Positions 13,166-62,305 of a DNA stretch of 64,000 nt are shown here, one piece after another. The position numbers and the translations under genes were made by a program. The notes beneath the pieces are model-generated. The model did no database searches and was not told the DNA's origin. It worked only from the letters and a program-made list of their open reading frames with translations. Each line of letters opens with the position of its first letter. Position 1 is the first letter of the stretch. The DNA is from a virus. The stretch covers positions 64,001 through 128,000 of the IMG/VR virus record IMGVR_UViG_3300021962_000028. One strand, written 5' to 3'.

Positions 13166-13222
13166 CTATATTTACTTTAACAATAAATACAACAAACATT
13201 TGGATATTTAAAAAACAAATTG

Positions 13223-13243
13223 TATCTTTGTAATGTTCTTTGA
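13223..13243 (+). promoter_or_regulatory. TAnnTTTG promoter plus boxA-like GTTCTTTGA upstream of tmRNA
   Basis: tatctttg at 13223-13230 and gttctttga at 13235-13243. Confidence 0.7.
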
Positions 13244-13249
13244 AAATAT

Positions 13250-13635
13250 GGGGATGAATGGAATCGATTGGCATTGTTGCGTATCGGTGGCACGTCGGAA
13301 CTGAATTAATTCCGTAAAAACTGATTCAAAACTGTAAACGGCAACGTTTTAGACAAAATGGCTCTATTAGGTCTTGTTAAACAAGATGAGCTTGTTTCTG
13401 TAGCGTAAGCACAAAAACATTCGGGTCGGCGGACTTATAACCTAGGAACAGAAGTCTTTATAGGTGTGGTTTCTATCTTAAAAGGAACAAGTGGAGGATT
13501 AGTTCTCAGTAAACCGAACCACTATAAAATAAGGGAATTGTGAATTTCGGAACATTAGAAAATGTTGACCTAAACGTGTAGTCACTTATATGTGAAGTGA
13601 ACAAGACGAGAGTTCGAATCTCTCCATCTCCACCA
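13250..13635 (+). ncRNA. ssrA: tmRNA; tag (A)GNVLDKMALLGLVKQDELVSVA
   Basis: 5' GGGGATG pairs with CATCTCC-A-CCA and contains G3.U70. GAGAGTTCGAATCTCTC T-arm. Resume context TAAAC-GGC, tag ORF 13340-13408. Confidence 0.92.
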
Positions 13636-17867: not shown

Positions 17868-17894
17868 ACTACAAAGATAATATTTTTTATTTAA

Positions 17895-38444: not shown

Positions 38445-40121
38445 TTAGTCAAAAGGGTTCGTCTCTGAATTTTGAGTTACAGGTGGTATTACCTGACTTT
38501 TAGACTTAGCAATTGAATCCATAGCTTGTTGTCTCCTAATTCTATTTTTTTCAAATTCGTCAGCACTATTTTCAATATTTTGTAATTGTACTGAATAATA
38601 TTCTTCAGCCGCCAACTTACTCTGTTTTACATCGGTTGACGTTTCTTCCCCAATTTTCTGAGCCGCCTCATAATTTTGTTTAATATTATCTAAATAAGTA
38701 ATAGCCTCTTCTTGAGTAGGTTTACTTTCAGCCTCTTGTTTAATCTTAGTAAGTTCCTCTTGAGGCATTTCCTTACCGTAAAGTTTTTTGTAGGCAATTT
38801 TTACTCCTTCAGCACCTAATATAATAGGTGTATCTACAGTTACTACTGCTTTACCCATTTTAACACTACCTTCTTTAATCTTAATACCAAATTTAGAAGC
38901 CTTTTGTGCAAAAGTTTTACCGACAGTTGGATTTGTTGCGGCTTTAGCTGCATTAACCTTGTAAACTTCTTGAATAACCGTTTTAAATCCGTCGGGTTTT
39001 GTTTTTGCGGCTTTAGCAACAGTTTCATATAATTCTTGTGCGGGTTTTGACATACCTTCAAAAATCAATGGATTTGTACCATCAAACTTTCCTAAAGTTT
39101 CGACTATTTCTTTACATTCCGCTTCACCATATTTAACGGTGTTACCCAACCAACCTCTAATACCTGGTGCGTTATGTATAAGTGGTAACGCGGCAAATAC
39201 AAATGACACTGTTGGGTCTAAACCTCTGTCCATTTCATATAACCCGATACCTACGTTGAATGCTGCCTGAGTTAAGAAATCTAAACCTATCGTCACTAAC
39301 TTGGCATTATTCATCACACTTAAGGCGGATGTTATTTCGGCCGATGCCGCAGTTGCAACCGCAACTCCTTCAGCTACCGCAACTCCCTCCGCAACAAAAT
39401 AAGCCCCTACAATAATATCCGCAATACCTGCAGTTGCAATACCAATTAAAATTGCCCCACCAATCTGAACAATCCAACCGTATTCATCCCACCATTTATC
39501 ACCAGTACTTCTTAAGTCGTCAGATGTCGGGGGTGAATAAGATACTTCTTTACCTCCTTCGGTTTTATAGTACCAAGGTTGCATAATCCAACCTCTATCA
39601 TCCCTATCATTTTCGTTTTTATAATGAATAGTCGCCCAATCGTAATTTTCGTCTTTTAATTCGATTAAGAAATGATAATTTTCGCCATTTTCGTGAGTAA
39701 CTGTTGGTCCTGTTTTAAAGGATTTAGGCCAATTCATCGCTGCAATTTCTTGCCAATACTTATTCGTCGGGAAAAATACTTTAGTCCCGTCATTCATTAA
39801 TTTATACCAACCATATTTTGGGTCTTCTTTTAAACCTGGAAATAAAGTACCTGATGTGTCTGTATCTTTAAACATATCCCATTTAGTACCTTCAACTACG
39901 TCAATTTCTTGACCATTTAAATAAGGCATTTTAATAGTAGTTCTTCTAGTCAAATAAGAACCGTCAGTGGTACCTCCAGGATTTTCTATAACACCATAGT
40001 TAGGTGCTCCTAAAACTGATTCGAGTATATTGATTTTTTTAATATTCTCGGTTAAAGTATCACCTACAGAATATTTCATTAATAATTTAATCCTATCTAA
40101 AGATTGTTCTTTATCACTCAT
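38445..40121 (-). CDS. Protein with Ala/Gly-rich hydrophobic helices, possible ejection or pore protein
   Basis: LDRIKLLMKY...TLTEN leader; long hydrophobic Ala-rich segment. Confidence 0.55.
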   Translation of the reverse strand: MSDKEQSLDRIKLLMKYSVGDTLTENIKKINILESVLGAPNYGVIENPGGTTDGSYLTRRTTIKMPYLNGQEIDVVEGTKWDMFKDTDTSGTLFPGLKEDPKYGWYKLMNDGTKVFFPTNKYWQEIAAMNWPKSFKTGPTVTHENGENYHFLIELKDENYDWATIHYKNENDRDDRGWIMQPWYYKTEGGKEVSYSPPTSDDLRSTGDKWWDEYGWIVQIGGAILIGIATAGIADIIVGAYFVAEGVAVAEGVAVATAASAEITSALSVMNNAKLVTIGLDFLTQAAFNVGIGLYEMDRGLDPTVSFVFAALPLIHNAPGIRGWLGNTVKYGEAECKEIVETLGKFDGTNPLIFEGMSKPAQELYETVAKAAKTKPDGFKTVIQEVYKVNAAKAATNPTVGKTFAQKASKFGIKIKEGSVKMGKAVVTVDTPIILGAEGVKIAYKKLYGKEMPQEELTKIKQEAESKPTQEEAITYLDNIKQNYEAAQKIGEETSTDVKQSKLAAEEYYSVQLQNIENSADEFEKNRIRRQQAMDSIAKSKSQVIPPVTQNSETNPFD

Positions 40122-40132
40122 ACTTTTAAATA

Positions 40133-40372
40133 TTACGTTAATTGATTTGCAGGACCATCTCTTTTAACCCTATCAGGTCTTTTCTCATTTGAAATCGGGT
40201 TTGCAGGACCTCTTGTTAGTTTAGAACCAACAATTCCTGACCAAGTTGTAACGTTACTTCCACCACCAGTTGACCCTCCAGCAGGAGCGTCTTCCTCCTC
40301 AATTTCGGTCTTATCATTTGATGTGGTGTATTTTTCCATCAAACGTATTAAATAATCAACGTCTATCCTCAT
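40133..40372 (-). CDS. Small hypothetical protein
   Basis: RGPAN.I / RDGPANQL repeat; TATTTATA upstream. Confidence 0.55.
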   Translation of the reverse strand: MRIDVDYLIRLMEKYTTSNDKTEIEEEDAPAGGSTGGGSNVTTWSGIVGSKLTRGPANPISNEKRPDRVKRDGPANQLT

Positions 40373-40424
40373 AATTATCTATAAATATTTTGTTTTTATG
40401 GAAAAAAATCAATACATTTGTCAT

Positions 40425-40931
40425 ATGAAAAATTTATTATTATTATTCGGGATTTTTGGTTTACTAATTTCTTGTGAGAAATACGAACAACCAACACTAT
40501 TAAGTTTAAGTGGTGAGTATGTGATTGATAAAATTACATTTGAAAAAATAGATAACGCGGTAACTCCTGACGATACCATTTATCAACCTGGTACAATGTA
40601 TATAAATCCTTTGGAAAGATTTCCTATGGATAGTATTAGTGTTGGGTTTACCAAATGGCATTTGGATTATTCAGTGATATCTATGAAACCAATACCGACA
40701 AATACGGGTCAATATATTTGGACCAAACAATATTTCTATTCTGTAATTAACCATTATTCAAATTATGATTTAGGTTATTTAGATTTTAATTGTGAAGGTA
40801 GTAGACGAGTATTTAAAATTATTGATGACCAAGCTGAGAGTATAACCTTAAGGTCCACAGGTCAGTGGGGTTATGCGGAAATAGGTCCTGATATTTCGGT
40901 TACATTACATTTAACCAGAATTGGTCCATAA
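40425..40931 (+). CDS. Lipoprotein
   Basis: MKNLLLLFGIFGLLISC lipobox after a TAnnTTTG promoter. Confidence 0.7.
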   Translation: MKNLLLLFGIFGLLISCEKYEQPTLLSLSGEYVIDKITFEKIDNAVTPDDTIYQPGTMYINPLERFPMDSISVGFTKWHLDYSVISMKPIPTNTGQYIWTKQYFYSVINHYSNYDLGYLDFNCEGSRRVFKIIDDQAESITLRSTGQWGYAEIGPDISVTLHLTRIGP

Positions 40932-40961
40932 AAAAACCCTCAGAAATGAGGGTTTTTTATT

Positions 40962-41258
40962 TTAGTATAAGTCTTTAGTTGGTAGTCTTTCAGGGTATAT
41001 CATATAGTATTCATTTAAGAATGCCAATAATTCATCTTCATCAACACCATCGTCTAAGTTCTCAACATCATCTTCGTCATCTTCATCATAGAAGTCTAAA
41101 TCTTCCATTATTAGATTATAACCAAAATCATCAGATTCACTTAATTCTATTTCATCGACACGAATCTCGTCGTTATTGTCTTCATTAAGTCTAAACTTTA
41201 CTTCAATAGTATCTATTGAATGATTAACGTAGTATGATATAATTTCTACTATTTCCAT
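40962..41258 (-). CDS. Acidic hypothetical protein
   Basis: 98 aa, very Asp/Glu-rich. Confidence 0.55.
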   Translation of the reverse strand: MEIVEIISYYVNHSIDTIEVKFRLNEDNNDEIRVDEIELSESDDFGYNLIMEDLDFYDEDDEDDVENLDDGVDEDELLAFLNEYYMIYPERLPTKDLY

Positions 41259-41309
41259 AAAATATTATTTATAACAATAAAATATCTCAAAAAAATTAAA
41301 AATCCACTT

Positions 41310-41765
41310 TTAATTATATTTTTTAAATCTTTTGAACATATCTAAAGATTCCTGTAATTTCTCTTTGAAGTTGTCTTCTACTGAATCGTCCTCTAAGTAT
41401 TCCGAGTTCATTTCTTCTTCCATTCCACCACATTCAGTACATTCTTCTTCCTCAACGTAGTCAAACTCATCAGAACCTCCAATACCTTTAACTTGACCGT
41501 GTCCACATTCACAAACCTCTTCGTATAATCCACACTCATCACAAACGTTCTTAGATTCTTTCATATACATTTTATTGTTGTATTTTGACACATTACCTAA
41601 ATGGTCTATCTGTAACCCATCTTTGTCATTTGCAAAATCTTGGGTATATAATGGAGTCATATTAGATTGTTGGTTATTTGTTGCATAACCGTCATACACT
41701 GTTTTGTGTTTATCTAATATGTTCTCTTTTTCTTCTTTTGTTATTGCTAAAAATAATCCGCTCAT
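41310..41765 (-). CDS. Hypothetical protein with CxxCG motifs
   Basis: CDECG, CECG, CTECGG; ITKEEK.NIL..H leader. Confidence 0.55.
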   Translation of the reverse strand: MSGLFLAITKEEKENILDKHKTVYDGYATNNQQSNMTPLYTQDFANDKDGLQIDHLGNVSKYNNKMYMKESKNVCDECGLYEEVCECGHGQVKGIGGSDEFDYVEEEECTECGGMEEEMNSEYLEDDSVEDNFKEKLQESLDMFKRFKKYN

Positions 41766-41829
41766 AATTTTTGTTTTTTTATATAAATATATTGACCTCT
41801 TGATTAATGTTTGTTATGTTTGATATATA

Positions 41830-41904
41830 AGAATTGGGGAAGGGTTTTTGGTTTAATATCTTGGTAACTTATTTCTCTTTAATACTCTTCCCATTCTTTC
41901 TTTT
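41830..41904 (+). ncRNA. Candidate trans-antisense sRNA
   Basis: TATGTTTG promoter (41815-41822). Stem AGAAT-tg-GGGAAG/CTTCCC-ATTCT plus U-tract encloses 25 nt matching 56923-56947 at 24/25. Confidence 0.6.
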
Positions 41905-42484
41905 AGTGGATTTTAATCCAATAATTGAGCATTAGGGATGCGTACCTTTGAATATATCGATTAATTACGTTAATATCCATCTCTTTACCCTCTTTCTCAA
42001 GAACTTTCATAACACCTTTAACCATTTCGTGTTGAGCTTTGTCTGCTAAGTCCAAAACTTCTTCAAATGATTCTTCATCACCAATATTCTTGTATTTAAA
42101 TTCGTGTTCAATTCTTTCTTTACCAAGATAAAGATACGGGGAAGCCCCGAACATATTAGTTATTCCTGACTCTCTTACCTTTTCCAAATATTGACCCAAA
42201 AATCTTGTATTAAAATTTTCAACAATAGTTTTATTGTCAATAAACCATTTTGCTTTATCAAATGAATTTTCTTGAATAGGCTCTAATTTTCTCCAAGCGT
42301 CTGTTACAGATAATAAAGATAATTGACTACCGTCCTCCCATCTAACACTATAAATCACTCCGTCCTTCTCAAAAGGGTCTCTACTTACTTTAATGACAGT
42401 ACCTTTACTACCTGGCGACATCATTTCACCTTCCATATGTAGTAACATTACTTTATCATCAACTTGTAACTCGGGATTTATCAT
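41903..42484 (-). CDS. Hypothetical protein
   Basis: SH3-like N-terminus (G.V..V...V.W.DGS.L.L) and ESG.TNMFGA.PYL motif. Confidence 0.55.
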   Translation of the reverse strand: MINPELQVDDKVMLLHMEGEMMSPGSKGTVIKVSRDPFEKDGVIYSVRWEDGSQLSLLSVTDAWRKLEPIQENSFDKAKWFIDNKTIVENFNTRFLGQYLEKVRESGITNMFGASPYLYLGKERIEHEFKYKNIGDEESFEEVLDLADKAQHEMVKGVMKVLEKEGKEMDINVINRYIQRYASLMLNYWIKIH

Positions 42485-42527
42485 ATCTTTTTTTAATAAT
42501 AAATATATTCATTATATTTATTGTTGT

Positions 42528-43148
42528 ATGAAAGTATTAATAACAGAGAATCAATATCGAACAATTCTATTAGAATCGTCTAAAAACTCATTAAATAATG
42601 TTTTAGAGGATTTAAAAGAGTTTGCAACAATGGTTATTGAAAAAACTCAACAGGATGTTGGAGTTAACTTAAAGATGTTATTAATATGGGGTGCTGGTGT
42701 AGGTGGAGTAATGGCTCCGTTAAATGAATTCATTCAGAATGGTGACTTCAATTTAAATGATTTTCAAATCGCATCTATATTATGTGCAACTACGGCAATT
42801 CTTTATGGTGAAAGTAAAAGTGTTATAAACGAATTACTTAAAGTTATAAAAGACGAGGGGATTGTAGATGAATTCAACAGAGTTTTATCGAAAGGTACTA
42901 AATTAAAGAAAGTATTTCTTAATTTCATTCAAAGTCTTAATATGACTTTATCAAGTGTAACTAACATTATGAGTTACGCATTTATTATCCCTATTTTACC
43001 TATATTATGGGATATGTCTCAAACAGGTGTTACTAAACCAGAGGTTAAAGAAATTGTGATTAGATTAATGTCATTTGGGTTAACCGCAATTTCAGGGAAC
43101 ACATTAAGAGAACTAGTGACAAAATTAGTCAACCGATTTAGGGACTAA
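42528..43148 (+). CDS. Membrane-associated hypothetical protein with MKVLITENQ leader
   Basis: Start reassigned; hydrophobic segments. Confidence 0.55.
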   Translation: MKVLITENQYRTILLESSKNSLNNVLEDLKEFATMVIEKTQQDVGVNLKMLLIWGAGVGGVMAPLNEFIQNGDFNLNDFQIASILCATTAILYGESKSVINELLKVIKDEGIVDEFNRVLSKGTKLKKVFLNFIQSLNMTLSSVTNIMSYAFIIPILPILWDMSQTGVTKPEVKEIVIRLMSFGLTAISGNTLRELVTKLVNRFRD

Positions 43149-43925
43149 TTTTCTAAAGTACTCTTCAATTTCATTCTCATCCATATCACCACCAGAATAT
43201 AAATGAACTTTTTTACCACATATTCTTTCAGGTATCAAATATAATGACAGATAATTTTCTTCGGTTTCACCCATACTAAACGCATCTGAAAATACCTGAC
43301 GATAGGCCTCACCTTCCATAAAATATCTAAGTTCTTCTAACTCGGTGTCGGTACTTTCCATCAATAATGTATATAACGACTCAACTAAATCTTGACTTAC
43401 TGAAGTAATAACAACTTTTTTATCTGAGTCATATCGTTTTAGTATTATTTTATCAATATTAAAACCACAATTAACAGTCACCTGATAGGAATGATTTTCA
43501 ATATCATATAACCCGTCATACTTAACAATGAACATAACACCAAAGTCCTGATATGAAATACCAAAATCAGGTATTTTCTTAAACATACTTTCTAACTTAT
43601 TCTCAAGTTTTAAAGGTAGATAATAGTCACTTCCTTTAATTGGGGTCCCATTAACATAAATCCTATCTAAATTTACTGTCATATTACCTGACGAATCAAT
43701 AAATTTAATTTTTTCATTAATTATGTTATAAGCAAAAAATTCTAACATATAATGATTCCATCCTCTACCTTCAGGTACGGTACAATTAACATCTATTGAT
43801 AATGTATCTTTTTTATGACCAGTATTATGAAACTTAAAGATAATTCCATTATCTTCATAATCTTTATGTGTCAATAACCTCTCAAGTAACTTGTACTCAT
43901 TATCAGGAATATAATTATTTTCCAT
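43125..43925 (-). CDS. Hypothetical protein
   Basis: 266-aa ORF. Confidence 0.5.
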   Translation of the reverse strand: MENNYIPDNEYKLLERLLTHKDYEDNGIIFKFHNTGHKKDTLSIDVNCTVPEGRGWNHYMLEFFAYNIINEKIKFIDSSGNMTVNLDRIYVNGTPIKGSDYYLPLKLENKLESMFKKIPDFGISYQDFGVMFIVKYDGLYDIENHSYQVTVNCGFNIDKIILKRYDSDKKVVITSVSQDLVESLYTLLMESTDTELEELRYFMEGEAYRQVFSDAFSMGETEENYLSLYLIPERICGKKVHLYSGGDMDENEIEEYFRKLVPKSVD

Positions 43926-44904
43926 CTCGATAGTACTGTAATATTCTTTGGATTACCTTTTCTTGATGTTTATCATCTAAGGTATGTTTAGACTTGTTAT
44001 TATTAAACCATTCCCGAGCACTTTGCTCAAACGGTTGTTTTCTTAACTTAGATATCCTTTTAAGACCCGCAACCTGAGCGTCTAACTCGTGTGGTTGTAC
44101 GTAGTATTTTTTAGGGTTATTTGTAGTTTTTTTAGGTTTTTCATCACCTCTCTCCGCCTGTATTAAATGTTGTAGTTCGTGTCTAACTGTCTCATTTAAA
44201 CTACCAACCAAGTCGTACATTTTTTGGGGGAAGTCGTTTTCATTATAAACTATTTCAATTTCCATAGTATCCTCATCATCATAATACCCCCCATCAAGTT
44301 CATAACCATCTACATCATCCGACTTAACAATAGTTAGCTCAAGATTAAAATTAGTTTTTAAATTTGGGAAAGAATATGTGATGTCTTCACTAATATCTTC
44401 AGGTAATACATAATCACCTTCGCCCTGGCTTTTAAACACCCTAACGATGTCCTCAACAACTTTTCTAACTACGTTTCTTTTTTCTGATTTAGTTTCTTTA
44501 ATCATTTCAGGATTTGATTCAAATGGGTTATATTGTTTACCAACATATTCAATAGATTCTACACTAGGGTCGTCTTTAATACTAAAATGTTGTAAAACTC
44601 TCCAAATATATTGTGTTAACTCTCTAGTAAAATGATAGGACCTGTCCCAACATTTATTTCTTGTATCACAGTTGTCAAGTAAATCTGATAATTGGTGTGG
44701 AGTAAATTCTGTAACATAAACTTTTACCCCTACGTGATTTCTTGGTTCTCCCATATGTAATAATTCCACATCATTAACCAATTCTATCTTAAATGAACAT
44801 TTAATAATGAAGTCAGGGGCTCCACTAACAAATGGACCCTCATATTGAAAGACTTTGTCTTTTATTACTCTATTAACTATTTTATATAAATCTTCATTAT
44901 TCAT
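43915..44904 (-). CDS. Protein with C-terminal HExxH zincin-like domain
   Basis: VRHELQHLIQ...YY..P.ELDA. Confidence 0.6.
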   Translation of the reverse strand: MNNEDLYKIVNRVIKDKVFQYEGPFVSGAPDFIIKCSFKIELVNDVELLHMGEPRNHVGVKVYVTEFTPHQLSDLLDNCDTRNKCWDRSYHFTRELTQYIWRVLQHFSIKDDPSVESIEYVGKQYNPFESNPEMIKETKSEKRNVVRKVVEDIVRVFKSQGEGDYVLPEDISEDITYSFPNLKTNFNLELTIVKSDDVDGYELDGGYYDDEDTMEIEIVYNENDFPQKMYDLVGSLNETVRHELQHLIQAERGDEKPKKTTNNPKKYYVQPHELDAQVAGLKRISKLRKQPFEQSAREWFNNNKSKHTLDDKHQEKVIQRILQYYRDGK

Positions 44905-49818: not shown

Positions 49819-51516
49819 TTAATAACCTAAAATAGTGTTATTTGAATATCCTGTGTTAATTAAATAATAATTTGCACTACCTCCACTCACTGGTGATGAA
49901 ATGGTAATACTTTGTACACCTGGATATGTACTTCTTAAGTCATTTGTTGACGTATTAATTATTGAAAATTGGGATGAGGTAAATAATCTAACGCTTGGTA
50001 GTGAGGGTCCCCAACTTGAAAATCTTCCATTCTTTTTCATAAAAATGTAATACTCGTCAGATACCGTAATATTACCATCATTATTAACATCGTACTTATA
50101 AAAATCTAAAGAAGTGAAGGACCTAGTTATTGCTTTTGTAGCGGCACCTATTGCGTCAATATTTTGTAGACCTGTAATTGTGGTAGGAGCGTCTAATTGA
50201 ATATACCACTCAACTGATGGGTTAGTGGATTCATTAATTGTGTATTTACCTGTAACATCCGTATATACGGTTTTAAATAACACCCAAGGTGTGAAGGTAA
50301 CTATATAATCAAATTCAAGTACATAAGGTAACGAAACATTATTAGGTAAGTCGTTCCATAGACCCGCACCAACGAATTGTGCGTAATCTTCACCCCCCGC
50401 ATTATTTGGTTCTCCACCATTCCAAGATAGATATGGGTTTATACCAAACCTGTAAGATAGTGACATATAATTTCTATTTATCTCATCCGAAGTTAAAGAA
50501 GTGTTATATACTTGGAATGAGCCTAATCTGAACGACCCATAACCACCGTGACCCATATGAGTCCCATCCGCCAATCCTAGTGCAAACACTTGGTCACCCC
50601 CACCATTTAAATGAGGTGCTAATCTATTAAACGTTGAACTACCAAAAGACACTCCATTTTTATATCCTGTCATTGTTGACCCATCATAGGTTAACGCCAC
50701 CATACACCACTGATTTAATGTAATACTTGTGGATATTTGAGTAATTCCCGTTCCATTCCAAAAACCACATCTTAATGTATTACCACCTGTAATTTCAATA
50801 ACTGACTCGTGCCATCCTGAGGTTGTCGATGTCGTACCCAATTCATCTAATATAATACCATTACCTGTTGGGTACACCCATAGTATTAATGTAATGACTT
50901 TTGAATTTGTGAAATGACTTGTTAAACTTGGTGTAATACCATAGTTATTAACACCATTAAATGTTAGGTATTTTCCCCCGCCTGTAGTTAGAACTGGTGA
51001 ATTATATAATGTAATATTTTTTGAATTTTTTAAATCCGTTAAAACACTACCTGAATTATAACTATTAACATCGTAATTGTTGGTTTGAGTGGTTGTTACA
51101 TAATTCTCAGTCCACCTCCACCCACCTAAGGGTTCTGAATAAAAGGCTCCTGTTTTATCCTGATAATAACCTATCCACCCTGAAGGCCAAGTGTTAAAAA
51201 GAAAATTTTTCTCGGAAACATCTGATATTGTCGCCAAATGCCCGTTCATATTTTCACAAGCGGTTTTTGCATCTAACCAAAACATTGAGCCTGTTGAACG
51301 ATAATATGAGTGACCGTTATAGTTGGTTTGAGACGTAAATCCGTTTAATGATGGTGTTGTTCGCTTATATAATTTCACAGGAACATTCGACGCTCCAACC
51401 CCATTTGAATTGTAGATATACCCTGAATAAGTAAAATTTTGACCCATCACAACATTGGTGAAGAACAAAACCAAAACACATATAATGTTTCTAACCTTAG
51501 ATTTTATTAACTGCAT
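49819..51516 (-). CDS. Secreted lectin-like protein: C-type lectin domain interrupted by a LamG domain, plus a dockerin-like C-terminus
   Basis: NGHSYY...W.DA...C....GHLATI...E..F and later W..GEPNN.GGED...WND; LamG W..VA.TYDG....Y.NG; DVNNDGNITVSD. Confidence 0.75.
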   Translation of the reverse strand: MQLIKSKVRNIICVLVLFFTNVVMGQNFTYSGYIYNSNGVGASNVPVKLYKRTTPSLNGFTSQTNYNGHSYYRSTGSMFWLDAKTACENMNGHLATISDVSEKNFLFNTWPSGWIGYYQDKTGAFYSEPLGGWRWTENYVTTTQTNNYDVNSYNSGSVLTDLKNSKNITLYNSPVLTTGGGKYLTFNGVNNYGITPSLTSHFTNSKVITLILWVYPTGNGIILDELGTTSTTSGWHESVIEITGGNTLRCGFWNGTGITQISTSITLNQWCMVALTYDGSTMTGYKNGVSFGSSTFNRLAPHLNGGGDQVFALGLADGTHMGHGGYGSFRLGSFQVYNTSLTSDEINRNYMSLSYRFGINPYLSWNGGEPNNAGGEDYAQFVGAGLWNDLPNNVSLPYVLEFDYIVTFTPWVLFKTVYTDVTGKYTINESTNPSVEWYIQLDAPTTITGLQNIDAIGAATKAITRSFTSLDFYKYDVNNDGNITVSDEYYIFMKKNGRFSSWGPSLPSVRLFTSSQFSIINTSTNDLRSTYPGVQSITISSPVSGGSANYYLINTGYSNNTILGY

Positions 51517-51949
51517 TAATTAAAGCCTTTTTCAAACCTGCCGAAAATGAAGATTTTTCAAATGGTATATTTTCATCTTGTAATTCAATAAAAGTTGATT
51601 TGACATCAATTTTACTCTCCCCAACACCAATATAATCTTTATCGTCGATAGTCACTCTTAATGTTACTATAGTAACCTTTCTTTTTTTCTCGAATGGACC
51701 TATTGAGATACCAGTAGTTGGTGCCTCAATACTTTCAATCACAACTGAAACAGGTTTACCGTCTTCACATATGGAATATTTTTCAGATAATACCTCTTCA
51801 GTTATTTGTTTTACCCCCAATGTAAATCGTTTAGGGCTAATCCCTTGAATACTGTCTTTAGTTTGAACACTTTTAACAGTAAAACACGACTGAGAGTAAG
51901 ATGTTATTGACATTAAAGTCGTCAATGTAATTAATAATAATATTTTCAT
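51497..51949 (-). CDS. Secreted hypothetical protein
   Basis: Signal peptide; C-terminus resembles the end of the CsgG-like gene product. Confidence 0.55.
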   Translation of the reverse strand: MKILLLITLTTLMSITSYSQSCFTVKSVQTKDSIQGISPKRFTLGVKQITEEVLSEKYSICEDGKPVSVVIESIEAPTTGISIGPFEKKRKVTIVTLRVTIDDKDYIGVGESKIDVKSTFIELQDENIPFEKSSFSAGLKKALINAVNKI

Positions 51950-51950
51950 T

Positions 51951-53543
51951 TTATAATAAAGCTTTAGCTCCAAGTAATACTTGGTAATTTAATGTGGCAT
52001 CTTTTACTTGTTGTACACCACTGAAACTTAAATTTAATTTAAATTTACTACTTATTCGATAATCAAATGCGGTGAATGGTACTGCTAACCATCCTGATTC
52101 GTACCACAACCCTTCATAATAATATACATATGGTGAGTATACAAATACTAACATAGTTGTGTTATTTATTTTTTTAGTAACTTTAAAAGTACCTATTAAT
52201 CCACCTAATGCCGATAAACTTTGGAATCTTGCGGAACCTAAGTTACCTGTCGTGTAATTAACCCCTAAAGTACCTGTAATATTTTTATATTTATAAGATT
52301 CCATTATTGAGGTTGTGTTGAAAAAATCCTTTTCAAAGTTCAACATTGATGAATTAGCAATAATTGATGTTAAATTTTTTCTTCGGTATCCCGCGAAAAA
52401 AGTGATGTTTGAATTGTTAATAGAACTAGTAAAATTAAGTAACGCACCTCTAACAAATGTATTATCGGTGTTTGACTTTGTGAAACTCATATTAACTCTA
52501 AACTGTTGAGCTTCGTCACCCGACGCACTACTAATCGCTACAATATCACCCGTTAATAAAATCCCACCTTGTTTTGCATTCGCAACTTTAGATTTAACTT
52601 GGGCCGAGTTAGATGATGAGGTTTTGGTCATATCATTTAACTTATCCTCATTTGGGGTTTCATTCCCGTTGTTAGTAGTGTTACCACCTGAACCTTGAGA
52701 ATTACCTCCATTTGTCGTTACAGACGATTGAGTCGTTTGACTTCCTCCTTGAGTTGGGTTACCTGTATTTGTAGTGTTTCCTCCTGTTGTTGACGTTGTA
52801 GTTCCTTGACTTGAATTACCTCCTCCAGTGTTTTGGTTATTTCCATTACTTGTTTGTGATTGCGGGTTCGTTTGATTTCCTCCAGAAGTAGATGAACCTC
52901 CTCCATTGTTATTTGTGGTACCATTATTTTGTGTTTGATTGTTAATGGTCGACGAACCTGAATTTGAGGTTGTCTGACCGTTAGAACCACCACTTTGATT
53001 TGAATTTCCGTTGGTTGTTCCGTTGGTTGTTTGAGGACTAGACCCCTGAGAACCACCATTTTGTGTGGTTGTCTGTGTATTCCCTCCGATGGTTGATGAA
53101 CCCTGATTAGGTTTAGATTTATTATCTTCAGAGTTGGACTTTTCCTTAGCTTCGATAATACCTCCGATATTCGAACCACCGATTGATGATATGTCGTTTA
53201 ACGCGGATAAAACATTTGTTAAAACCGCAATATTGTTAGCCGCAATAATTGCATTCATTGTTGTATTTTGATATAATGCAACACCACTACAAGGACCCGA
53301 AGGATTTGATGAATTAATTTGAGTAATCCATTGCTCCAAAGCACCTGATTGTAATTGAGTGGGGGTAAAACTTTGCACCTGACCATAATACATTAAGGCA
53401 ACATTTCCATTAGGGTTATTAATGAAAAGTTCTTTAATTTTATTAGTACAGGGGTCCGTATATGTATACGAAAACCCCTGTCCAAATACCATTAATGTTG
53501 TGAACAGAAAACTTAGTGTTATTAAAATTTTCTTAATGTTCAT
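51951..53543 (-). CDS. Secreted protein with a G/N/T/S/Q-rich linker and probable C-terminal beta-barrel
   Basis: Signal peptide MNIKKILITL, low-complexity linker, amphipathic strands ending LGAKALL. Confidence 0.6.
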   Translation of the reverse strand: MNIKKILITLSFLFTTLMVFGQGFSYTYTDPCTNKIKELFINNPNGNVALMYYGQVQSFTPTQLQSGALEQWITQINSSNPSGPCSGVALYQNTTMNAIIAANNIAVLTNVLSALNDISSIGGSNIGGIIEAKEKSNSEDNKSKPNQGSSTIGGNTQTTTQNGGSQGSSPQTTNGTTNGNSNQSGGSNGQTTSNSGSSTINNQTQNNGTTNNNGGGSSTSGGNQTNPQSQTSNGNNQNTGGGNSSQGTTTSTTGGNTTNTGNPTQGGSQTTQSSVTTNGGNSQGSGGNTTNNGNETPNEDKLNDMTKTSSSNSAQVKSKVANAKQGGILLTGDIVAISSASGDEAQQFRVNMSFTKSNTDNTFVRGALLNFTSSINNSNITFFAGYRRKNLTSIIANSSMLNFEKDFFNTTSIMESYKYKNITGTLGVNYTTGNLGSARFQSLSALGGLIGTFKVTKKINNTTMLVFVYSPYVYYYEGLWYESGWLAVPFTAFDYRISSKFKLNLSFSGVQQVKDATLNYQVLLGAKALL

Positions 53544-53544
53544 C

Positions 53545-53913
53545 TTAAACGTCTGTAGTGTTCGATAAAGACACACCGTCTTCTTCGTCAACCTTTTGAA
53601 TTAACATTTTATCTCTGTCCTCAGAATTGAACCAGTAATCAACAACTTTATTTAAGTTACCTACGAATGCTCCTAAAAGGATTAATAACATTTCTTTCCA
53701 ATCCTCTTTAATTTCAATACCAAAGAATACCGCGGAATTAATTCCTGCAATTATAAAGAAAAACAAACCTAATACGATGGCAGTAATTCTCCAACGATTA
53801 GATTGCATTTGTTGTAACATATAATAGAAACGATTTTTATCTTCTACTTTCACCATTTTGGTTTCACCCATTAATAAACTTTTTAAACTCATTTTTTTAA
53901 GATTTAAAGACAC
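53545..53913 (-). CDS. Two-TM membrane protein
   Basis: LLILLGAFVG...VVDYWF holin-like helical hairpin. Confidence 0.55.
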   Translation of the reverse strand: MSLNLKKMSLKSLLMGETKMVKVEDKNRFYYMLQQMQSNRWRITAIVLGLFFFIIAGINSAVFFGIEIKEDWKEMLLILLGAFVGNLNKVVDYWFNSEDRDKMLIQKVDEEDGVSLSNTTDV

Positions 53914-54613
53914 CCTTTTTTATTAATTTTGACACAACTCTTGACGATGCCGTTTCAAGAGCCTTTTTTGTCGAAATACCTATAGTTGATTGATTAAATT
54001 TGATATCATCAACATCTGACAACAATGATGATGTTTTAACCGTTGACGCCTCACCTAAACCACTACCTGTGTAAATTTCGCCCGTTTCAGCGTCCACAAA
54101 TCTTACTTGTAAACCTAAACGAGTTATTTGAGTTGTTTTTGCACCATCAGAAGCTTTAATGACTTCATCTTCAGACACTGAAAAATCATATACTTCGATG
54201 TACACAAAATATTTAGCTAAAATTACATTACCTTTAACTTCTATTTTATTACTCGAAATCCCTTTATCTGATGCTTTGTCTTGAGCAATCATTTTTTGTT
54301 TAATTTCCTCTTTATCTTCAGTAAATTTAAATCTATCTGTTGATTCAAGATATTCTAAAACTATGTTAGCAACACCTAATCCCACTCTTTTATCTTTAAG
54401 TTCAGGATACATAGAATATAGTTCTTCATTAATACCAATTTTAAGAACTTGGATAGGTATTACGATAGTATCAGTATAGTCTGATACTACAGAAATGGAT
54501 TGTTTCTTTTCAAAATCCGCTTGATACTGTTCGGTTTTAACCGTACCTATTTGACCACTTACTTTACAAGAAAGTAATATTATGGGTAATAGGGTATACA
54601 ATAACTTTTTCAT
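53897..54613 (-). CDS. CsgG/HfaB-like protein
   Basis: LG..NI....L..TDRF...E, VYDF, LGLQVRFVDAETGEI; signal peptide with LSC. Confidence 0.65.
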   Translation of the reverse strand: MKKLLYTLLPIILLSCKVSGQIGTVKTEQYQADFEKKQSISVVSDYTDTIVIPIQVLKIGINEELYSMYPELKDKRVGLGVANIVLEYLESTDRFKFTEDKEEIKQKMIAQDKASDKGISSNKIEVKGNVILAKYFVYIEVYDFSVSEDEVIKASDGAKTTQITRLGLQVRFVDAETGEIYTGSGLGEASTVKTSSLLSDVDDIKFNQSTIGISTKKALETASSRVVSKLIKKGVFKS

Positions 54614-54951
54614 TACCAAGAATCCTCTTCTTTTTTAACAGGTTTAGCAGGTTCAGTTGTCTGAGCTGCAGGTTTTTCAATAATACGTTCTTTAATGATT
54701 GTATTTGTACCACCACCGTTTTCAACTTTTTGTTTATTTTCTTGATTTTGTTGTACGTTAACTATAACTGGTGCGGGTGCCGCAGTTTGTTCTGTTTTAG
54801 GTTCTTCTTTTTCTTCTGAATGACCACCAAATAACATTGTTGATACCCATACCCCACCGCCAGCAATTACTGTAGTTAGTGTTCCGATTATTGTTTTCTT
54901 TAACCCTGACCAAGTTCCATCTGATTCAGGTACGTTTGTTTCCTCTGACAT
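54613..54951 (-). CDS. Single-TM protein
   Basis: N-terminal TM and low-complexity tail. Confidence 0.55.
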   Translation of the reverse strand: MSEETNVPESDGTWSGLKKTIIGTLTTVIAGGGVWVSTMLFGGHSEEKEEPKTEQTAAPAPVIVNVQQNQENKQKVENGGGTNTIIKERIIEKPAAQTTEPAKPVKKEEDSW

Positions 54952-55019
54952 AATATTTGTTTGTTTTAATTTAGTTTATTGTTTAAAGGCTAAGAGGTCA
55001 CAAATTGTGACCTCATTTA

Positions 55020-56921
55020 TTATTTTAAAATTATTTTACTTGTTAGTTGTATGTCACTTCGTTTAAGAACCGCAACATAAACACCTGCAGGTAAATAACC
55101 AAGGTTAGTACTGTACTGATAATCACCTTCAGGCATCTTATCATTAACCATTACTTTATATTCTTTACCATCAACACCGTAAACCGATAACCTAACGTTA
55201 CCATATTCTTTTACTTCAAATTTAACAGTAACATAATCTTGGGTCGGGTTAGGGTACACTATCATACCATCAATACTTGTCATATTTCCATTTATCATTT
55301 TGTAAACTTGAATAACTCCGTTAGTAGGTGTTATTTCCAAATCTTTACATTGGTTGTCACCAGCGAATTTATCGGTAGTCCAAAGAGGACTTTCGTCCCA
55401 TAAATTTTGTGGTTGTTTTGCGATAAATTTTAAAGTCACCACTTCATCGTTATTACGAATAGGTTTTAAATGATTACTATTATCGTAACCACCCCAAGTA
55501 ATAATGTTATCATTAGTATTCAAGTATGTTAACCAACTTGATGCTGATGATTTAGAATCAATACCTTTGAATTCTAATAATGTGTCATTATATTTTAACC
55601 CAAACTGTAATGAACCTAAGTCAGTACCACTTGTAAAAACTTTTACAGGTATATTAACTAGATTACCTTCTTGTACTGATAATCTCGGTACGTTAACTTC
55701 TATCGAAGTTGTTGGGAAATCATACTCAACTCTATTGTCAATCACATTATATATTTGAGATTCAACACCAGGTTGAGGGTTAATTAAAACCTCAATCGGG
55801 GTCACACGAGCCATATGATAACCTGTTCCGTTAGCGTCACCAGGTACTAACACGTAGAATGTTGGGGATGGTGCTCCCGCAATAATATTAAATGTGAAGT
55901 TGGTTGTACCAGGGATTGATGACAAATAGTTTGTGGATGAACCGTTAATTGTCGTGTATTCAGACGCAGTGAAGAATTTAACATCTTTAACACTGTTAGG
56001 CCAAACTGAGAATCTACCTGAGATTCTACCAAATACACCGTAAGCGTCCGATATAGTTATATTATTATCACCGTTAACATCCGCAGCGTAGTAATCAAAC
56101 CCTGTCGGTGTTTGAGTTCCTAATACATAGTCATTAACTTTTTGAGCATCAGCCGTAGAAATAACATTACCTACTGACATAGTATCACCAACAATTTTAA
56201 TACGAACATCATAACCTGTAGTATCAACCGCAATATCGTTAAACGCGAAGATACCTGAGTTATTAGTTAATGTACTAGTTACTGATGTCCAAGACCCACT
56301 AGGTCTAAGTTTTTTCTCAAGACCAACTGTTAAGTTTTTAGCCCCTGTACCTGTAACGTTTGTAAACGTACCCGTAAAAGAAAATGTCTGAGGTAACATA
56401 ACCCCACCAAAGTTTTGTAAGGTTAACGAATTATCAGTACCATCTTGTTTTGTAGAAATAGATGGATATGTGTTTATACCACTAAACGACATATTACCTA
56501 CAGATGTTAATGATGAGAATCCTGCGATATGTTGTAATTTCAATTGTACAAATGCACCGTCAGGAATCTCAAAAGTAGATAAACTACCTGTATAAGATAA
56601 TGTAATTGTTACATAACCATTTGCAGGGTTATCTACATATTGTAAATACTGAGAATACGATGTGTTTAATGAGGTAACTGTGTCGACACCTGAAAAGGCA
56701 AGTTTGTCGTAGTATACTCTGAATTGAGCCGCGGTAATTAGAGTTGTAGTGTTATTGTAGAAACACAAACCTACGTTAGTAAAACCAGCTGCCGACGGTG
56801 CCAATTGGTAATTTGAATCTAACGTAACGAAGACCCCTGTTGTGGTCGGGGTAGGACACGTTTGAGAGAATCCGATTGCACTCATTAATAGAAATGAGGC
56901 AACCGCTAAGAGTTTTTTCAT
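55020..56921 (-). CDS. Secreted cohesin/dockerin-like protein with T9SS type-A C-terminal sorting domain
   Basis: Signal peptide; cohesin-like V..G..V.IPV...LGSLQF.L.Y...LL.F; DVNGDNNITISD; VYPNP...LPAGVY...K C-terminal domain. Confidence 0.78.
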   Translation of the reverse strand: MKKLLAVASFLLMSAIGFSQTCPTPTTTGVFVTLDSNYQLAPSAAGFTNVGLCFYNNTTTLITAAQFRVYYDKLAFSGVDTVTSLNTSYSQYLQYVDNPANGYVTITLSYTGSLSTFEIPDGAFVQLKLQHIAGFSSLTSVGNMSFSGINTYPSISTKQDGTDNSLTLQNFGGVMLPQTFSFTGTFTNVTGTGAKNLTVGLEKKLRPSGSWTSVTSTLTNNSGIFAFNDIAVDTTGYDVRIKIVGDTMSVGNVISTADAQKVNDYVLGTQTPTGFDYYAADVNGDNNITISDAYGVFGRISGRFSVWPNSVKDVKFFTASEYTTINGSSTNYLSSIPGTTNFTFNIIAGAPSPTFYVLVPGDANGTGYHMARVTPIEVLINPQPGVESQIYNVIDNRVEYDFPTTSIEVNVPRLSVQEGNLVNIPVKVFTSGTDLGSLQFGLKYNDTLLEFKGIDSKSSASSWLTYLNTNDNIITWGGYDNSNHLKPIRNNDEVVTLKFIAKQPQNLWDESPLWTTDKFAGDNQCKDLEITPTNGVIQVYKMINGNMTSIDGMIVYPNPTQDYVTVKFEVKEYGNVRLSVYGVDGKEYKVMVNDKMPEGDYQYSTNLGYLPAGVYVAVLKRSDIQLTSKIILK

Positions 56922-57142
56922 AGTTTAATATCTTGGTAATTTATTTCCTAATAAATATTTTATTTATACGGATTATTACATTAAACTATTAAACTATTTC
57001 TAAAAATGGGAAAATTATTACTTTAAAAGTAATTATATGTGTAAAAATTATGAGAAGTATTATATATAAAACCTACCTTACCACTACAAGAGTAATGATT
57101 TACTCAATTGACATTATGCAAAGATTTTTTTTAATTTAAAAA

Positions 57143-62032: not shown

Positions 62033-62305
62033 TTAATTAGTTTCCTCTTCTTTAGTTGCGTTTGCAACATCTTTTTTCATTGCAATAAATTTATCCGCAG
62101 AAGATAAACCTAAACAACCAAATGCTAATAATGCAACTGCGTTAACTAAAGAATCCGCAGGTTTAATATCCCCGTGAGAATAACTGTTCACATACATAGT
62201 AATACATAGTGTTAATGCACATACAATACCTACAAATCTTTTAGATGAAGGTATTCCGTTTTCGTCTTTAAAAAGTCCTGAGACCCAGTCAATAATTTTT
62301 TTCAT
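62033..62305 (-). CDS. Two-TM holin-like protein
   Basis: SSKRF.G motif plus two TM helices; TATTTATA upstream. Confidence 0.6.
   Translation of the reverse strand: MKKIIDWVSGLFKDENGIPSSKRFVGIVCALTLCITMYVNSYSHGDIKPADSLVNAVALLAFGCLGLSSADKFIAMKKDVANATKEEETN

Follow-up and report, generated by a model that had tools for sequence, protein, structure and literature searches.

A word repeated at four gene boundaries of a 159-kb phage genome, and a candidate antisense RNA that may pair with its distant copies

Phage-encoded antisense RNAs that act on messages of their own phage include lambda OOP RNA (77 nt) and P22 sar RNA (68/69 nt), of which sar pairs at the translation start of ant and OOP at the 3′ end of the cII gene, with cleavage by RNase III (PMC12197685). 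The known phage antisense RNAs directed at phage genes are encoded opposite their targets, while the known trans-acting ones aim at host genes (PMC12197685); DicF, from the Qin prophage, and PreS are phage-encoded small RNAs that act in trans by pairing at translation starts (PMC12197685; bioRxiv 10.1101/2024.10.31.621285). We regard OOP and sar as the systems nearest to the locus described here, and DicF and PreS as the next nearest. P4 CI RNA and P1/P7 c4 RNA are immunity RNAs that pair with repeats in the phage’s own operon, and leader sites of the nut and ops type serve antitermination factors (lambda N, RfaH and Bacteroides UpxY).

The stretch analysed here, called the window throughout, comprises 64,000 nucleotides (bases 64001–128000) of a single phage record of 158,622 bp (~159 kb; G+C 32.5%); positions are those of the window unless marked as genome positions. 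Domain searches would group the phage with phages of Flavobacterium-type hosts. A word of 20–25 bases, which reads GAAATAAGTTACCAAGATATTAAAC on the minus (gene) strand, is repeated at four gene boundaries in this genome. A preliminary description of the window had matched 41851–41875 (copy 1) to 56923–56947 (copy 2) at 24 of 25 nucleotides; we confirmed this same-strand match and found none of its level in 100 dinucleotide-preserving shuffles. We located the exact 11-mer ATATCTTGGTA at three window positions (41856, 56928 and 62304), always on the plus strand; beyond the window there is a third full copy in the same orientation, at genome 144072–144096 (L284:2073–2097), where the first 21 nucleotides (plus strand) are exact and 22 of 25 agree overall. 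The inventory is three full and one or two partial copies per 159 kb, all in the same sense, with no reverse-orientation copy of the 25-mer in the phage record within 6 mismatches. The possibility, named in the preliminary description as one that would undo its reading, that the 25-mer is a dispersed DNA motif is partly borne out by these three to five same-sense copies. Their shared orientation is not independent evidence of function, because nearly all genes around the copies lie on the minus strand. Among the partial copies, a possible fifth in the same orientation is TTACCAAGATAA (genome 148062–148073, outside the window), an 11-nt piece that overlaps the stop codon of a 98-aa frame.

A nucleotide search with 40000–44000 against 50,697 phage records gave no match. 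Chance hits predominated among the matches listed in an exact 15-mer scan of IMG/VR, and an exact 17-mer scan, which is blind to variants of the word, found it in this context only in the relatives G001, G002 and G004; the other 17-mer matches fell in unrelated sequence, many of them recurring in apparent coding regions. Among the IMG/VR matches listed, the word in this context thus appears limited to a small clade. Relatives for comparison were gathered with the flanking proteins as entry points and by walks along contigs from metagenomes. Features of the window are collected in Table 1.

Table 1. Positions of the word copies, the copy 1 cassette and neighbouring genes in the window
Feature	Position	Strand	Basis or conservation
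Host-type (Bacteroidota) promoter-like site, TTG-N20-TATGTTTG	41792..41822	+	Genome-wide pattern scans; kept in 97% relative
Predicted ~78-nt small RNA (start deduced, 3′ end placed in T-run)	41827..41905	+	Prediction from sequence
Hairpin, 15 pairs (one G-U, one 2-nt bulge), ~38-nt interior with word	41829..41898	+	Folds
Word copy 1	41851..41875	.	Kept in G004, G001-type and type-B relatives
T-rich tail TCTTTTA, directly 3′ of stem, overlapping stop codon of 193-aa gene	41899..41905	+	Sequence
193-aa gene, upstream of cassette, weak DUF4314 match	41903..42484	-	ORF, Pfam
151-aa gene, downstream of cassette, own TATTTATA box	41310..41765	-	ORF
Word copy 2, nearly whole predicted 5′ leader of cohesin operon	56923..56947	-	Kept in G004, G002, G001 and type B; absent in G003
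TATTTAT box (putative late promoter), 3 nt upstream of copy 2	56951..56957	-	Sequence
633-aa first gene of cohesin operon: Cohesin domain, T9SS C-terminal sorting domain	55020..56921	-	Pfam
Partial word copy 4, TACCAAGATAT, overlapping AT of holin-like start codon	62304..62314	-	Kept in G004, G002, G001 and distant relative L083; absent in G003 and E180 type
90-aa small membrane protein, putative ‘holin-like’	62033..62305	-	No Pfam or PHROG match

Copy 1 sits between two minus-strand genes, after the stop codon of the 193-aa gene (41903) and before the TATTTATA box and ATG (41765) of the 151-aa gene. As had been proposed, it lies within a hairpin that is followed directly by TCTTTTA on the plus strand. 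The cassette measures ~85 nt, and we read it as an insertion because the counterpart spacer in relatives that lack it is only 30–50 nt long. Three versions of the stem were found, different in sequence and each complementary within itself, with the word in the loop every time: GAATGGGAAGAG with CCCTTCCCCAATTC in this genome, AGAGGGA with TCCCTCT in the G001 type, and GATT..GGGGG with CCCCC..AATC in type B. The loop flanks differ in both length and sequence among lineages, the word alone being constant.

All three versions have a T-run immediately 3′ of the stem on the plus strand (TCTTTTA here; T9, T8, T5CTT and T6 in relatives), so the U-tract of the preliminary description is a kept feature and every version ends in a hairpin and then a U-run, as a defined 3′ end would. 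The minus strand carries no equivalent T-run in the G001 type, and a few stem pairs form as G-U in a plus-strand RNA where a minus-strand RNA would have A-C mismatches. The T-run and the G-U pairs favour the plus strand as the RNA strand; fold z-scores (−1.06 for plus vs −1.90 for minus) lend that strand no support. The loop closed by the stem ranges from 38 to 55 nt across lineages, atypically large for an intrinsic terminator, and a simple terminator scan did not call the hairpin. A MAFFT alignment of six cassettes misaligned the stems, so that RNAalifold on it was uninformative and the stems were instead judged by eye on individual folds. Rfam covariance models applied to 41600–42050 returned chance-level matches only (E above 4).

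Upstream of the stem, on the plus strand, TTG (41792–41794) and TATGTTTG (41815–41822) are separated by a 20-nt spacer. The preliminary description had seen a Bacteroidota-type promoter here; that pattern is perfect in this genome (G000) and in G004, is half kept in the G001 type, where the −7 box TATCTTTG remains and the −33 element is poor, and is lost in type B, in which no plus-strand box is recognisable. The full pattern occurs 48 times in the genome, with 28 of the 48 in the 11% that is intergenic. About 23 of these 28 precede an identifiable gene or RNA gene: 17 lie within 40 nt of a same-strand start, and most of the others stand before RNA genes, including tRNA blocks and the tmRNA. 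Because intergenic matches mostly have a gene or RNA gene behind them, the site at copy 1 probably functions as a promoter in this genome. The −7 box stands exactly 4 nt before the ATG in ten genes of this phage, implying leaderless messages from host-type promoters, and the start of the predicted RNA, ~41827 or two bases before the stem, was deduced from these ten genes.

Several other sites of this promoter type were noted along the way. The TAnnTTTG box 4 nt before an ATG (ten genes genome-wide) is found, for example, at window positions 17872, 20548, 21065, 45379, 46980, 49780 and 61971. A tmRNA that ARAGORN missed (Rfam RF00023, 101.8 bits, E 1.8e-40) lies at 13250–13635 on the plus strand (region 13200–13635), with a perfect host-type promoter ending at 13230, ~20 nt before the RNA start. 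A further perfect host-type promoter, at L284:3640–3800 (plus strand; genome ~145640–145800), has no gene behind it and is followed by a strongly folding sequence of ~90 nt that ends in a hairpin around a T8 run; this sequence, near genome 145680, had no Rfam match, and the element may be another small RNA gene.

Copy 2 belongs to the cohesin operon. The second site had been described as essentially the entire predicted 5′ UTR of the first gene, and this holds: copy 2 starts 3 nt past the TATTTAT box and stops 1 nt short of the ATG. At copy 2, four lineages have the same TATTTAT-N11-TTACC spacing but anything from 1 to 6 nt between copy 2 and the ATG, which fits a promoter-linked site better than a start-codon-linked one. 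TATTTAT occurs within 40 nt of 54 of the 204 gene starts, its distances before starts peaking at 4 nt and at 13–17 nt.

The cohesin operon itself (49819–57142) comprises seven genes and appears as a movable block when compared with L364/L368 and L390. The whole operon is replaced by a reverse-strand PPK2 gene in the E180-type relative; PPK2 adjoins the operon on its upstream side in G001, G002 and type B and lies ~30 kb away in the present genome (genome 149111–150187), where the gene upstream of copy 2 is a lytic transglycosylase. Inside the operon, the start of a 238-aa gene (54606–54620, minus strand) reads CTTGGTAATG, an 8–9-nt reverse complement of the word core that abuts the ATG; G004 and G002 share it, and type B has it with one mismatch. 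We regard this match as probably due to chance.

Copies 2 and 4 both lie between a TATTTAT box and a start codon. Copy 3 is flanked differently: the TAA within it serves as stop codon for a 286-aa gene, and a classic terminator hairpin with a T-run follows directly. Inspection of the 286-aa protein by eye shows a hydrophobic stretch close to the C-terminus and then a basic tail. At copy 4 the core TACCAAGAT runs directly into the ATG (62303–62305, minus strand) of the 90-aa gene, whose product has two hydrophobic stretches, also judged by eye. The genes at sites 2–4 all appear to encode membrane or exported proteins. The preliminary description had cast the targets as translation starts, which suits the cohesin leader; copy 3, the other strongest site, is a junction of stop codon and terminator.

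We then compared pairing energies. The predicted duplex of the hairpin interior reached −32.1 kcal/mol with copy 2, in the cohesin leader, and −33.2 kcal/mol with the copy 3 site. When 100 shuffled loops were set against all 204 gene starts, the best duplex was −24.8 kcal/mol and the average best −18.4; the next real pairing sites reached −21.5 kcal/mol at a gene start and about −27 genome-wide. Complementarity to distant sites is beyond chance for copies 2 and 3. The start of the holin-like gene, at −15.9 kcal/mol, ranked 6th of the 204 gene starts, which is not beyond chance alone. The target search that the preliminary description had called for, run here by energy, thus returned the cohesin leader as an extreme outlier and left the holin-like site within chance, even though the 11-nt core does overlap the holin-like ATG as had been stated.

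The differences among copies are consistent with copy 1 behaving as a hub for copies 2 and 3, although the pattern is suggestive only. Copy 1 matches copy 2 in its 5′ flank and shares a G at −1 and a C at +18 with copy 3, where 22 perfect pairs result. At flank positions −7 and −8, copies 1 and 2 agree within each of three genome types and differ between types. Two types retain a G/A difference at −1 between copies 1 and 2, and G001 shows an indel and a C/T change between its two copies, tolerated but uncompensated. No clear compensatory change between RNA and target was seen, because the word is nearly invariant over ~20 nt.

Across relatives at 65–92% protein identity the word sites are kept while their flanks diverge. 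G004 (97% protein identity), G002 (81%), G001 (71%, with a 1-nt deletion) and type B all retain copy 2, and the six bases between the TATTTAT box and the word differ in each lineage that keeps it. Copy 3 is kept in G002 beside an unrelated terminator, with homology stopping exactly at the end of the word. Copy 4 persists in G004, G002, G001 and L083, and copy 1 in G004, the G001 type and type B, the last of which has both copies 1 and 2. A distant relative, G006, has one word copy, at the holin-like start, in a contig that is 11% complete.

The presence of the word is all-or-none: two related genome types are without it at every site examined. G003 has no word at sites 1, 2 and 4, despite 83% identity in its cohesin gene and 76% in its holin-like gene, and shows ordinary leaders at both genes and no cassette after its homologue of the 193-aa gene. 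The E180 type has no cassette, no cohesin operon and no word at the holin start, despite 94% identity in the holin-like protein and 79% in the 193-aa protein. As presence is out of step with protein similarity, the sites must have been gained or lost jointly on more than one occasion. A presence/absence matrix of the proteins of this genome against five relatives (partial, mosaic contigs) revealed no clear protein that matched the distribution of the word.

We hypothesize, with a probability of about 45%, that a plus-strand RNA of ~78 nt, with the core TTACCAAGAT, pairs in trans with the cohesin leader and with the 3′ end of the 286-aa message, and weakly with the holin-like start. Host RNA polymerase would transcribe copy 1 from TTG-N20-TATGTTTG, and the transcript would fold into one long hairpin that displays 20–25 nt of complementarity to the word, with a U-run at its end. 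Its first target would be the cohesin/T9SS operon, 15 kb away, where 24 of 25 nt could pair with the whole short leader and the approach to the start codon; its second, 38 kb away, would be the stop-to-terminator junction of the 286-aa membrane-protein gene, with 22 perfect pairs; and a third, weak target (11 nt) would be the start codon of the holin-like gene. At the two starts, ribosome loading would be blocked; at the 3′ site, the duplex would offer a double-stranded target for RNase III, as lambda OOP does on cII. Messages from TATTTAT-type promoters, encoding membrane and exported proteins, would in this way be held down for as long as the host-type promoter is active. Plus-strand transcription, the RNA ends, the timing and the direction of the effect are all inferred. 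The antisense RNA proposed in the preliminary description draws support from the hairpin, the T-run, the promoter match, the outlying cohesin leader and the joint presence and absence of sites, and is weakened by the uneven conservation of the promoter, the stop-junction target and the energy at the holin-like start.

The main rival is that the word is a sense-strand site, in RNA or in non-template DNA, for a trans-acting protein of phage or host, with the copy 1 hairpin presenting a high-affinity version and the plus-strand signals there coincidental. Such a protein might be a translational repressor like T4 RegA, a repressor at an operator just past TATTTAT, or an elongation or antitermination factor as at nut or ops sites, which lie in leaders and before terminators. 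We consider this reading somewhat unlikely, yet the data fit it nearly as well as they fit an antisense RNA. Near-invariance over ~20 nt, found at every site and in every lineage, exceeds what base pairing needs, as is usual for sites bound by proteins; no lineage departs from TATTTAT-N11-TTACC at copies 2 and 4, whereas the gap to the ATG is variable; copy 3 directly before an intrinsic terminator and copy 1 after a gene end recall nutR; loss of a protein would explain the all-or-none presence equally well; and type B does without a plus-strand promoter. A candidate protein was not found, however: PF02357 (NusG) gave no hit in the 159-kb record (53% complete by CheckV estimate), and the flanking 193-aa and 151-aa genes also occur in word-free genomes. 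A protein site would moreover leave unexplained the conserved T-run, the perfect promoter in this genome and G004 and the co-changing flanks of copies 1 and 2, and presentation in a hairpin is seen at copy 1 only.

Two further readings compete with the antisense RNA. The word could be sequence from module junctions or from a duplicated leader, disseminated and homogenised by recombination among mosaic phages and without a regulatory role. The genomes are strongly mosaic, copy 2 does lie at a junction (lytic transglycosylase vs PPK2 upstream), homology at copy 3 ends exactly with the word, and the cassette has a patchy distribution even among close relatives. With three to five copies in 159 kb, the word nevertheless falls short of a genome-wide set, and the constancy of the word across lineages at 65–80% protein identity, as its surroundings change, argues for selection on the word itself; the G/A difference between copies 1 and 2, kept in two lineages, speaks against recent homogenisation, the compensating hairpin and T-run would go unexplained, and copy 4 is not at a junction because the terminator upstream of it is kept in word-free genomes too. 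We judge this origin improbable. Least probable to us, and by our estimate quite remote, is that the functional RNA is from the sense strand, the 3′ end of the 286-aa message or the 3′-UTR hairpin of the 193-aa message being released as a decoy for whatever binds the leaders or to pair with host RNA. The seed-then-terminator layout at copy 3, which G002 keeps with a different terminator, is typical of small RNAs derived from 3′ UTRs, and the copy 1 hairpin has the better z-score on the minus strand; such an RNA would lack a complementary partner in the phage, which has no reverse copy within 6 mismatches, and the sole 11-nt complement, inside the 193-aa gene, is not conserved.

That complement, TATCTTGGTAA, lies 250 nt upstream of the word and had been considered for internal pairing within the 193-aa message; it is exact over 11 nt and is not kept at the nucleotide level in cassette-bearing relatives, and so we attribute it to chance. 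The idea of a promoter for a phage polymerase was rejected on the terminator that immediately follows copy 3 and on copy 4, which is the 5′ half only, coding sequence replacing the rest. Complementarity of only ~6 nt to the conserved 3′ end of 16S rRNA and a 9-nt match to the T-arm of a phage tRNA near 24140 were likewise treated as chance.

More broadly, and tentatively, this may be a large Bacteroidota phage of lytic type in which a dedicated RNA, made by host polymerase and carrying a single loop of 22–25 nt, represses the phage’s own distant cohesin/T9SS, tail-anchored membrane and holin-like messages, as a regulon gained or lost as a unit with its target sites. If this is true, a trans-acting RNA that reaches several targets within the genome of its own phage would represent another layout for the timing of phage genes, and an example of it in Bacteroidota. 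To our knowledge, Bacteroidota lack Hfq and their messages lack Shine-Dalgarno sites, so long complementarity displayed in a loop may be the mode in which such regulators work there. Even without the RNA, the word singles out a few jointly inherited sites at envelope-protein genes and would offer a handle on the control of the unexplained cohesin module.

Among described systems, T4-type promoter-stem-loop cassettes come in many intergenic copies, each with a promoter and a stem-loop, whereas here only copy 1 has a hairpin. Like nut and ops sites, the word is short and oriented and lies in the early transcribed region of long surface-structure operons and also before terminators, but three of its four sites are without a boxB-like hairpin and the record holds no NusG-family gene. 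With P4 CI and P1 c4 RNA the proposed RNA would share the use of one small RNA on several repeated sites in transcripts of the same phage; those RNAs are processed from the target transcript and act through same-strand inverted complements, whereas the copies here are direct repeats, for which a regulator must come from the opposite strand. OOP and sar are closer: each is similar in size, a lone short RNA with a promoter of its own and a terminal hairpin and U-run, and targets a phage message, and between them they cover the start-type and 3′-end-type targets that are both proposed here. They are encoded opposite the gene they control, whereas the copy 1 cassette overlaps in cis only the 3′ UTR of the 193-aa gene, so that it is not cis-encoded with respect to its targets, at least two of which would be strong and lie 15 and 38 kb off. 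DicF and PreS resemble the proposed RNA as phage-encoded small RNAs that base pair in trans at translation starts; they act on host genes through short seeds, mostly with Hfq, whereas the RNA proposed here would act on the phage’s own genes through 22–25 nt.
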